Shown in pieces: positions 47,243-49,784 of a stretch of DNA of 64,000 bases. This DNA comes from Fervidicoccaceae archaeon (GTDB lineage: Archaea; Thermoproteota; Thermoprotei_A; Sulfolobales; Fervidicoccaceae). Numbering within the stretch: the first letter of the stretch is position 1; every line of letters begins with the position of its first letter. The DNA is taken from positions 124,001 through 188,000 of the forward strand of contig JAVYOA010000009.1 of assembly GCA_038734945.1 (NCBI GenBank). Reading direction: 5' to 3'. Made by a program: the position numbers and the translations under genes. The notes beneath the pieces are model-generated. The model made no database searches. It had not been told where the DNA came from and saw only the letters and a program-made list of their open reading frames with translations.

Positions 47243-48303
47243 CAGAGAGTCTCCAAGTTTGTTAATATATATTAAAAAAATTAGCTTTTTGCCCTCCTTA
47301 ATCCGTTTATGAAGAGGGCTATTAACAATATGTCCAGAATGACAGAGATTATCACTATTGTTCCTGCTCCAGCTTGATATAATGCTGGCAATCCAGGTAG
47401 CACTGCTAAGAGCCACCAGATTAGAGCAGTTGTCACTGTAACCCACAGGAACAGAGCTGGGATTATCAAAAGCAGCGATGTTTTCCCCTCACCTTCAATA
47501 TGGCATATGCCCATAGAGACGTTGTGAGAAGAGCAATGGCAGCTAGGAGCTGATTTGTCCCCGAAAATGCCGGCCATATTATATTATAGGCATAGACCGT
47601 CATAGTTCTTGTGGTTCCTGGTATGGTGACAACCATTTTAGGATATGCTAGGATTGCTCCTATTATGACAGGTAGAGCTGATGCAAACCATCTATTTGTT
47701 ATTATCTTGTGAGCTTTCTGGTTTCTTGGCTTGAGCCAATCAAAGAATTCCACCCATGCAAATCTGGCCAGCCTGTCTGCAGCATCCAGGGTTGTCATAA
47801 CGAAACCCGTTAGAGCCCAAGCGGCGAACGTTTTGAAGCCCAGGAAAGTTGAAGCAAAAACACCTGACCCAAAAATTCTCGACCAGGCTGTTGCTTGTTC
47901 CAACCCGTAACCCACTAAGAATCTGTCAATGGCTCCAAGAGAAGTTATTATTGGAGTAGCAGTTGTGTTTATTCCAATACTCTGGAGAGTGCTTTCTACG
48001 GGAAGCCCAGTCATTGAGCCAAGCTGAGCGAAATTCCATGCTAGAGCTATGGGCGTAATTACAGCCAATGAAGATACTGCTCCCTCAGTTAGCATTCCTC
48101 CATATCCAACAAGGAGTGCATCCAGCTCGTTGGAGAGCTGCTTGGATGTTGTACCAGAGCCAACTACTGAGTGGAAACCAGATAGGGCACCACATGCGAT
48201 GACAAGAGGGACGGTTGGCCAGAAATATGCAATTAGGGCGCTTCCGGTTGGAGTACCGGGAATTGCACCTATTACTGTACCTGGGCTGTTTTCTTTTTGA
48301 TAT

Positions 48304-48519
48304 TCATTTGGGTTGTTTATGCGCTTTGTAGCTGTTCATGATTTCCGTCTTGAATGTATTGAGGTACGCTGATGCTGTGTGCCTGTCCAAGCCACGCTTC
48401 TTCATCACGACGCTGTGCATGGGTGAGCTTGTGATTCCTCGGGGATCGACTAGAACTGGTTTTAACCCGTACTTCAGGCTCATGACTACCGTGTGATTTA
48501 GTAGTACTCCTCGGGCAAA
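48304..48519 (-). pseudogene. tnpB: C-terminal remnant of a TnpB-related protein
   Basis: FARGVLL..VMSLKYG..VLVDPRGITSS..H..VMKKRGLDRHTASAY resembles the C-terminus of crenarchaeal IS607-associated TnpB-like proteins (recognised from memory). Confidence 0.7.
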
Positions 48520-48579
48520 CCACCACCATTGTAAACTACTGCAGAAAAGCTTAAAATTTTTACGTAAATAATAGTATTG

Positions 48580-48785
48580 AAGTAAGGATGAACTCGATGA
48601 GCATGGCGAGGAGGACACCTCGTGCACTCTGCTTCGCTGCAGGGAGCTGGGTGAACCGCGGGCAACTGCTGGAGACAAGCTCCCGTAGGCGGGGCTGGGG
48701 AAGAACAAGCCGTTGAGAGGTGGACGGCTGAGAGGCTTAACATAAAAGAGCATAGAAGCCAATGAACAACCATCCACCAAGAAAC
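48580..48785 (+). ncRNA. Putative structured RNA inside the IS element
   Basis: Hairpin 48606-48623; 17-bp stem 48631-48648/48678-48695 enclosing a GCAA tetraloop hairpin (48658-48669); hairpin 48708-48729; several G-U pairs favour the + strand; TATA-like tract at 48550-48556. Confidence 0.6.
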
Positions 48786-49553
48786 GGCAGCAAATCCAGT
48801 ATATACAGGTCCTGTTAGAAGTAGGTCAGGTATTATCAAGGCTGCGAGGATAGCTAGCCCAGCAAATACCCACAGCAAATATGCATTCAGATAGTCTCTT
48901 GGTTGTAACAGATACCAGACTGGAAGAGCAGCTGCCAGCATGGAATATAGCGTAAGAACAACTATCCATGCCTCATATGTTAGATAGAGTGGTGTTCTCA
49001 TTGAATAGAAGAATGCTATGACGAGAATAATCAAAGCTATACCTGTTGCTAGCTTAACGCTCAGCCCTGTTCTGTAGACTAGAATTCCAAACAATAGAGC
49101 GAGCGGCATGAATATGATTGCTATTGTGGCTGCTGTAGGTGTGCTGACAAAAGTAGATGAGGCCACGCTCAAAAAGGCAGCAAGGACGAGCACGAGAGCA
49201 AACCAAACATAGGTTAGGAAAATATACTTGGCTTTTCTCCCCATAATGTTTTCACTCACGCTCATCACAGATAATCCGCCATGCCTAACGCTTGCCATGA
49301 TTGCCATATAGTCATGAACAGCTCCAATCAAGATGTTGCCTGCGAGAACCCATAGAAGCGGGAGACCCCAGCCCCATACCATTGCGATTGCTGGACCTGT
49401 AATGGGCCCTGCTCCTGCTATTGCTGCGAAGTGATGTCCATAGAGTACATACTTGTTCGCTGGAGCATAATCTATTCCATCGAATTTTTCATAGGCTGGT
49501 GTGAGCCTATCTGGGCTCGCCTTCACAACTCTTTTCTCAAGAATTTTTTTTAC

Positions 49554-49594
49554 AATCCCGAAAGCCTCGCCCCTTAGGGCGGGGAGGAGGTCAG
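49554..49594 (+). mobile_element. Solo IS200/IS605 end hairpin (copy C, 41 bp, most intact)
   Basis: TTTAC|aatccc GAAAGCCTCGCCCCTTAGGGCGGGGAGGAGGTCAG inside the 5' end of cstA. Confidence 0.8.
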
Positions 49595-49784
49595 CGCGCC
49601 AATAGCTTCCTTTATTTTCATTGATATCCACCTTTTAAGATGGATATATGTATTTGTGATTTTAAACGATCATATTTAAATTTTTTAAAAAATTAAAAAT
49701 GAAAGATATAGAGACTAGCAAGTTCCAGCAAGTTCTACATAACAGAAAAGCCACAAATAGATGTTAAAACAATGAAATTATAAG

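Follow-up and report, generated by a model that had tools for sequence, protein, structure and literature searches.

A deleted TnpB-like element in an archaeal cstA gene carries a divergent structured RNA, a candidate guide RNA of its clade

Introduction

What has interrupted the cstA gene of a Fervidicoccaceae archaeon, and why does the interrupting DNA end in a segment that appears to fold as an RNA? The gene lies in a 64,000-nucleotide stretch of contig JAVYOA010000009.1 (assembly GCA_038734945.1, positions 124,001 to 188,000), which we call the window, and it is split by a 501-bp insert that holds a remnant of a TnpB-like gene on one strand and a GC-rich structured segment on the other. 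A reading made from the letters of the window alone (hereafter the sequence-only reading) had proposed that the insert is a deleted IS607/TnpB element of inverted architecture, in which a structured RNA points away from tnpB. Comparing the insert with its relatives, we find it to be a deleted TnpB-like element and consider it probable, though well short of certain, that its RNA is the omega-RNA, or guide RNA, of its clade.

An internally deleted element in cstA

The two cstA frames, on the minus strand, lie exactly 501 nt apart, with an ambiguity of one G at the insert boundary (positions of all features are collected in Table 1). Five cstA orthologs are continuous across the junction point, and the closest of them (L070, 66% identity) has the same length across it once exactly 48285-48785 is removed, whereupon the N-terminal part, ending ...GFAA, is followed by PGTVIG.... 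The frames and the ortholog comparison indicate no target-site duplication, and together with the two Pfam CstA halves they bear out the clean insertion that had been proposed. An intein or other in-frame insert is ruled out, since the cstA frame reaches a stop within the insert. The insert is present as a single copy in its own genome (1.34 Mb, 99.95% complete). A search for the empty site in sister species returned flanks of only 66-74% identity, in alignments that end before the junctions, and a scan of 47800-49300 against Rfam at expectation values (E) up to 10 gave two chance-level matches and nothing else.

When 61 related genomes were searched with the DNA, 14 gave matches, most of them within the GC-rich right half of the insert, and one of the matching loci (L004) contains a 365-codon minus-strand open reading frame (ORF) whose end resembles the remnant in the window. 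Pfam gave no match for the remnant ORF alone, and it was because full-length relatives were found that the remnant could be identified as TnpB-like. Alignment with L047, the full-length element nearest to the insert, falls into two blocks. The left block, window 48285-48505, corresponds to the last 233 bp of L047, that is, the 19-nt end sequence and the last ~70 codons of a 372-amino-acid ORF, and the right block, window 48505-48788, corresponds to the L047 promoter and RNA. Between the blocks ~1006 bp are absent, with an overlap of 1 nt at the deletion junction 48505/48506. The insert is therefore a deleted TnpB element, as had been suspected, and the stop codon of the remnant (48304-48306) lies 19 nt from the element's own end, where the sequence-only reading had placed it.

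A conserved RNA that reads outward from the element

The RNA segment of the window, 48584-48788, has a GC content of 0.57 against 0.43 for the whole window. When 12 copies were aligned over ~205 nt with MAFFT, conservation ended after GAGAAAC-GG-Y, and RNAalifold predicted 46 pairs, of which 19 are compensatory. A covariance model finds the RNA in 49 of 151 genomes of the order, with up to 16 copies per genome, and RNA copies often far exceed protein copies in the same genome. Among 63 model-aligned copies, 90.7% of cells are paired, 44 of the 46 pairs show changes on both sides, and the covariation is 0.468, compared with a maximum of 0.104 when partners are slid and with no value as high in 500 shuffles, figures that come from an alignment fitted to the covariance model and thus favouring structure. 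The 12-copy MAFFT alignment, which is independent of the model, goes in the same direction. The covariation expected under the sequence-only reading is therefore present, and the conservation stops at the element boundary; the RNA sits at the element end and would read into the host, as that reading had it.

Folding of the single window sequence does not tell the strands apart, since the plus strand folds at a minimum free energy of -74.8 kcal/mol (z -3.6) and the minus strand at -69.4 kcal/mol (z -3.6); it was dropped as a strand test, and the decision comes from the comparative data. Each of the 12 sequences has its better fold on the plus strand, with alifold values of -59.4 against -42.2 on the minus strand. 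Read on the plus strand, the relatives contain 345 G-U/U-G cells against 94 A-C/C-A cells among 2515, and one U-G pair is retained in 53 of 57 sequences. Further, the 73-nt Rfam model RF02814 (Sso133, the Sulfolobus small RNA sRNA133) matches the central helices of a Sulfolobaceae relative of the RNA (L188) with 91.2 bits on the RNA-sense strand (gathering score 44) and 29 bits on the other; the model covers about one third of the RNA, and for the window copy it gives no match at E up to 10. Taken together, these comparisons point to an RNA read on the plus strand, which agrees with the earlier use of G-U pairs as a strand signal and with the GC-rich plus-strand segment, capped by a GCAA tetraloop, that had been described.

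Several observations concern the ends of the RNA. The three bases past GAAAC (alignment columns 358-360) covary with an internal RCC (columns 221-223). Distant subfamilies have CCC-type ends with GGG partners, the true ends having been checked for the Sulfolobaceae group only; in this group the copies end ...GACCCC|Y and the left flank is without GG. In the full-length copy L004 (1720-1789) the sequence of the 3′ hairpin is wholly different and was misaligned by MAFFT, while the same stem-loop and the closing AACGGT are kept, and in a miniature copy (L128, 169-373) the loop of the 3′ hairpin is replaced and the model scores on both strands. Finally, the RNA model weakly matches (E 0.046) a canonical IS607 tnpB exactly at its 3′ end (L142, 2620-2797), with a similar 5′ start and a terminal ACGG, a hint of kinship between the stand-alone RNA and the omega-RNAs of ordinary IS607 elements.

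Layout and proteins of intact relatives

Full-length copies, which the sequence-only reading had looked to for comparison, do exist among the relatives. In an intact element the 19-nt end is followed by a TnpB-like gene of 355-372 amino acids, an ORF of 48-54 amino acids that lies upstream of this gene and overlaps its start, a TATA promoter, and the GC-rich RNA of ~200 nt on the opposite strand. In 24 of 30 loci that contain the protein, the RNA is placed ~200 nt upstream of the protein genes and in the opposite orientation. Since this divergent layout recurs in intact relatives, the inverted architecture is the normal state of the family and not a by-product of the deletion, and an RNA pointing away from tnpB is native to these elements. 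Relative to the element ends, the RNA is at the usual place of an omega-RNA, reading outward, and the protein genes are the inverted part.

Between the two divergent units sits a TATA box with A-rich arms, ~25-35 nt before the conserved RNA start in all subfamilies seen. Many copies have a palindromic tract; the palindrome is perfect around TTATAA in L004, and it is perfect also in Sulfolobaceae copies. The tract may act as a two-way promoter. The sequence-only reading had taken the AT-rich tract of the window for a TATA box in both directions, which holds for the TATA-centred palindrome of the relatives and less well for the window, where the box is degenerate. By contrast with the RNA region, the 3′ region of tnpB has no conserved structure (structure conservation index 0.10 against 0.59, in the same seven loci). 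A canonical omega-RNA at the tnpB 3′ end, overlapping or downstream of it on the same strand, is therefore rejected for this family, and this check, which could have refuted the sequence-only reading, comes out in support of it.

With the L004 protein as query, the protein family was found in 115 of 325 genomes of the order, and it is small overall: a search of 1.84 billion representatives yields 232 clusters at E up to 1e-3. Full-length members gave nothing significant in Pfam, and the L004 protein scores under the cut-offs of the NCBIfam TnpB models. A sequence profile matches Cas12X, Cas12f and TnpB-like chains in the PDB with E of 4e-6 to 3e-3. An AlphaFold2 model of the L047 protein, with a predicted local distance difference test score of 91.2, has as its top Foldseek matches Cas12f, Cas12k and TnpB (8h1j, 8exa, 8iaz) and Fanzor2, with probability 1.0. 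The modelled structure thus places a TnpB/Cas12f RuvC fold in the family. Across a profile of 30 sequences D211 and E275 are strictly conserved, and D342 and H344 nearly so, the latter two in a DRH motif that replaces DRD in RuvC-III, so that His344 occupies the third position of what would be a D-E-D catalytic triad. The region from RuvC-II to RuvC-III is devoid of a CxxC pair in all 30, and hence there is no C4 zinc finger. The homologs P0001-P0120 are all labelled with the precomputed Pfam family PF27229.1.

The small ORF is conserved as well (48 amino acids in L044-L048). It has no significant sequence match in Pfam or the PDB, and a protein atlas gave a faint MazE lead only (rank 28, score 0.81). 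The ORF lists of L044-L048 contain no TnpA, just the small ORF and tnpB.

These features match, as far as its published description goes, the clade RIIIr-4, or "RHH/MazE-TnpB" (Altae-Tran et al., 2023; PMC10691335), which is described as archaeal, with RuvC-III Asp replaced by His, no zinc finger and a small DNA-binding gene upstream. In both cases a small gene directly precedes tnpB, given in the published account as AbrB/MazE or RHH, and the zinc finger that is missing is of the C4 type. The published account calls the group non-mobile, proposes a toxin-antitoxin function and seeks the guide in a long 3′ untranslated region. In our elements, by contrast, tnpB stops 19 nt short of the element end, the RNA lies upstream and runs divergently, and the copies are mobile or recently were. 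Because the clade is already published as immobile with a presumed 3′ guide, the new points here are the divergent RNA and the mobility. Our literature search for a divergent RNA in this TnpB clade found no description of one, and a search on the name Sso133 found no archaeal RNA paper.

Mobility, ends and junctions

In two genomes (G068 and G175) most RNA copies lie in elements of ~260-330 bp that consist of the left end, the TATA box and the RNA, within unrelated flanks, while Sulfolobaceae genomes hold several ~1.5-kb copies each with sharp ends. Copies also split genes: cstA in the window and PaREP1-like genes elsewhere, the latter making up three of the four split genes (L093, G193:C77; L126, G068:C126; L044, G221:C15). 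The multicopy miniatures, the sharp ends and the split genes contradict the published label "non-mobile". Two of the PaREP1-like genes are interrupted at a Trp-Gly codon pair (TGG GGT), matching the target motif.

Of 42 left flanks, 39 have G at position -1 and 38 have G at -2, with G, T or A before it, and the G-rich 5′ flank noticed in the window is real. At the right end GAAAC is followed by G (66 of 68), G (67 of 68) and then T, C or A (57, 8 and 3 copies), with no preference beyond. GG at both junctions, a G-rich target and, in cstA, the lack of a duplication agree with IS607, which inserts at GG without duplication (PMC6188088). One IS607 element with a serine TnpA (L141, genome G042) starts GG|GCTGTTTTG and ends GACAAAC|GG, like the ends of this family; the ends of L143 are similar to those of L141, while those of L139, L142 and the IS607 element of the host's own genome are unlike them. 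Resolvase genes occur elsewhere in all five copy-rich genomes. A Y1 transposase (Pfam Y1_Tnp) occurs in three of the five and was not found in the other two, the genomes with 16 and 11 RNA copies, nor in the elements. The proposed IS607 affiliation is accordingly supported in part, by the GG junctions, with a mixed picture from the ends, which are like those of some IS607 elements and unlike those of others; it does not extend to a TnpA in the elements, nor to the junctions as a whole.

To derive a junction rule, the reading frames of the four split genes were compared with intact homologs. In cstA, L093 and L126 the host would have to keep GG on the left and GGY on the right, which gives a vacated site with four G (TGG^GGY), whereas L044, compared with its intact ortholog L210, fits the classical IS607 rule of a single shared GG, i.e., three G. 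The simple one-GG junction is thus rejected for three of the four split genes and retained for L044. A rule of the IS200/IS605 type, in which the element ends after GG/GGY, is permitted by the cstA frames and opposed by homolog lengths in L093 and L126. No single cut-and-join rule explains all four junctions (in the window, 48283-48288 and 48780-48788).

A candidate guide RNA and its alternatives

An element ~1.5 kb in full length entered cstA at ...CCTGG^GGC..., and a later internal deletion of ~1 kb left the end by the tnpB stop, the last ~66 TnpB-like codons, the promoter tract and the complete RNA gene. In intact relatives the central TATA tract divides a leftward unit, comprising the small ORF (48-54 amino acids) and the TnpB-like gene (355-372 amino acids), from a rightward unit, the ~200-nt RNA, whose last helix closes at the element boundary. 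We hypothesize beyond this that the RNA would be the omega-RNA, or guide RNA, of the clade, made from its own promoter and not cut from tnpB mRNA, and it would acquire a 3′ guide by running on into the flanking DNA, with the G-rich left flank (D-G-G, with TGGG across the junction) as target-adjacent motif (TAM). The geometry of TAM, scaffold and guide would then be the usual one, and the protein genes alone would be inverted. Binding to the palindromic promoter is the probable role of the small protein, and the element is probably moved in trans, perhaps by IS607-type serine transposases.

We infer that this RNA guides this TnpB because the linkage of RNA and protein is constant, the protein is predicted to have the TnpB/Cas12f fold, and the RNA is at the element end with a variable 3′ flank, and also because of the G-rich motif at the other end and the weak match to the IS607 element L142. 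A number of points weigh against this interpretation. The function assigned to the RNA rests on analogy, and with His at the third catalytic position nuclease activity is only putative. The clade has been read in print as a toxin-antitoxin pair with a 3′ guide (PMC10691335). Six of the 30 protein loci (L051, L057, L058, L060, L061 and L065) have no RNA match, of which at least L051 is truncated by a contig end and the others have possibly diverged. The last RNA helix, RCCGUU with AACGGY, is completed by three host bases in three of the four junctions; in the window these are the last three bases of the RNA (48786-48788, GGC), which belong to cstA and yet pair with GCC within the RNA. Known omega-RNAs have no such host-completed helix, and DNA-level recognition of the element end would explain it equally well. 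The TATA box of the window is degenerate compared with that of L047, the minus strand of the window folds nearly as well as the plus strand, the larger covariation figures come from the model-fitted alignment described above, and the host's own genome, as considered below, has no intact family protein.

The alternative that best withstands these data is that the structure is real and is not a guide, serving instead for recognition of the right end as DNA by a transposase or as a regulatory RNA (antisense or antitoxin-like), while the protein uses no RNA or another one. Pairing between the element and three host bases at three of four junctions resembles recognition of an end or cleavage site by pairing, the miniature copies retain exactly this end, as expected for a sequence needed in cis for movement, and the exchange of the catalytic Asp for His and the published toxin-antitoxin proposal would fit as well. 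However, seven helices covary over ~200 nt, far beyond what a transposase needs at an end site, and the G-U pairs are retained in a strand-specific manner. The RNA further has its own TATA box at the right distance and a same-strand small RNA in Rfam (Sso133), and all TnpB/Cas12 relatives with solved complexes among the Foldseek matches are RNA-guided. We therefore regard this alternative as unlikely, though it merits more weight than those that follow.

The published view would make the pair an immobile toxin-antitoxin module, with TnpB as toxin and a MazE-like protein as antitoxin, and the piece in the window a decayed chromosomal module rather than a transposon. The overlap of the small ORF with the start of the nuclease gene and the faint MazE lead are in line with the proposal (PMC10691335), whereas the position of the piece within cstA with clean boundaries, the PaREP1-like genes split by other copies, and the many copies per genome with defined ends and unrelated flanks make it very improbable. 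A toxin-antitoxin-like relation of the two proteins inside a mobile element could still hold. Least credible of all is a minus-strand RNA that would form a long 5′ leader to the operon of small ORF and tnpB and draw its guide from the 5′ flank, as in IscB, because the upstream position of the RNA, the good minus-strand fold of the window and the similar structure conservation index of both strands (7 sequences) are outweighed by a TATA box between RNA and ORFs, which would require the transcript to start outside the element, by the 345 cells that would become A-C/C-A, by the poorer minus-strand folding of every one of the 12 sequences, and by the lower Sso133 score there.

Returning to the guide-RNA interpretation, a more specific version of it can be put forward tentatively, with somewhat more doubt than confidence: RIIIr-4 TnpBs may be two-part RNA-guided enzymes with a separate divergent guide gene at the transposon end, in which the last helix of the RNA is completed by three bases, the first of the target flank, and insertion splits a TAM of the GGGG type so that only the vacated site is cut. 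If so, the published view of the clade as an immobile toxin-antitoxin system with a 3′ guide would be overturned, and these proteins would represent a zinc-finger-free hyperthermophilic editor of ~360 amino acids with a ready-made separate guide cassette.

According to published work (PMC10278001), the TnpB guide is cut out of the tnpB transcript at its 3′ end. Guide supply is thereby bound to the expression of the nuclease and to the end of the transposon. An RNA with its own promoter, combined with inverted protein genes, would uncouple guide supply from both, and would show a route from a transposon guide to a free-standing guide gene and on to RNA-only miniature elements. It would also correct the published picture of the clade with regard to RNA position and element mobility, give a function to a catalogued Sulfolobus small RNA, and point to small thermostable nucleases with a putative His-containing active site.

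Comparison with known systems

The family shares with canonical TnpB/omega-RNA systems (IS200/IS605 and IS607, ISDra2, and the IStron of Clostridium botulinum) the predicted TnpB/Cas12f fold, GG at both junctions and an RNA whose 3′ end is the transposon end, with a variable flank beyond. Its G-rich flank at the other end resembles TGGG of the IS607-family IStron, which in that system is both target and TAM (PMC10690162), so that the TGGG motif named in the sequence-only reading is indeed in print. It differs in that the RNA is a separate opposite-strand unit with its own TATA box instead of overlapping or following tnpB, that in the protein the zinc finger is missing and His stands where the third catalytic Asp would be, that the element contains no TnpA, and that the closing helix includes flank bases. 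An RNA gene upstream of the nuclease gene is found also in IscB/IsrB systems, yet the IscB RNA is co-oriented with a 5′ guide (PMC10691335), while here it is on the other strand and the variable flank is 3′.

The nearest precedent for a stand-alone, promoter-bearing element RNA is given by the RNA-257 paralogs of Sulfolobus solfataricus, which are transcribed solo RNAs derived from the IS607-family ISC1904 and survive without its genes (PMC3674436). Their source is the distal portion of the coding sequence of a canonical orfB, and they are taken to be relics whose promoter arose by mutation, whereas in the present family a separate promoter is the norm.

The window copy and its genome

No intact family protein was found in the host's own genome, which holds the remnant only, and neither protein nor RNA was found in any of 7 other genomes of the host's family. 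With no intact partner protein in its genome, the copy in the window has most likely been orphaned and persists as a relic. The suggestion that it could supply guide RNA to a TnpB in trans is not supported: the genome has four canonical TnpB loci, there is no significant match of the RNA model near any of them, and the ends of its own IS607 element are unlike those of the insert. Most simply, one full-length element entered cstA and then lost its interior, and the RNA gene stayed behind as an orphan. As an insertion the window copy is ordinary and dead; it has inactivated cstA, and at most it would give rise to a transcript antisense to the first (5′) half of the disrupted gene.

Table 1. Features of the interrupted cstA gene and its insert (positions in the window)
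Feature	Positions	Strand	Evidence
cstA, C-terminal part	47466..48284	-	272 codons; Pfam CstA E 3.7e-41, profile positions 287-535
Insert: non-autonomous remainder of a ~1.5-kb TnpB element after internal deletion	48285..48785		cstA frames, ortholog length, two-block L047 alignment
Element end adjoining the tnpB stop; begins GCTGTTTTC, preceded by host TGG	48285..48303		same end in L047, L048, L044-L046 and miniature copies
TnpB-like gene remnant: about the last 66 codons and stop, including DRH (RuvC-III)	48304..48505	-	six-frame match to L004 protein, E 2.1e-13; L047 alignment
Small upstream ORF, first codons, cut by the deletion; TTG start 48518-48516	48506..48518	-	comparison with 48-amino-acid ORFs of L044-L048
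AT-rich tract, putative promoter: A-rich stretch and TATA-like box, degenerate here	48542..48564		alignments with relatives
Structured RNA gene, ~200 nt	48584..48788	+	covariance model R1, 203 bits, E 2.4e-56
GNRA tetraloop GCAA atop the central helix	48662..48665	+	fold; GCAA, GCGA, GUAA or GUGA in relatives
cstA, N-terminal part	48786..49631	-	282 codons; Pfam CstA E 1.9e-67, profile positions 21-281
Host DNA, putative source of a 3′ guide if the transcript continues	48789..48810	+	conservation among copies stops here

A 158-codon minus-strand ORF (48304-48780) spans nearly the whole insert, RNA included; it has no Pfam match, and most likely the frame is open by chance, the sequence being GC-rich. 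The one IS607-type element of the genome (G000:C2, ~342100-343700; L208, L031) consists of frames for a serine recombinase of 162 codons and a canonical TnpB of 410 codons, and the genome has three further full-size canonical TnpB frames.

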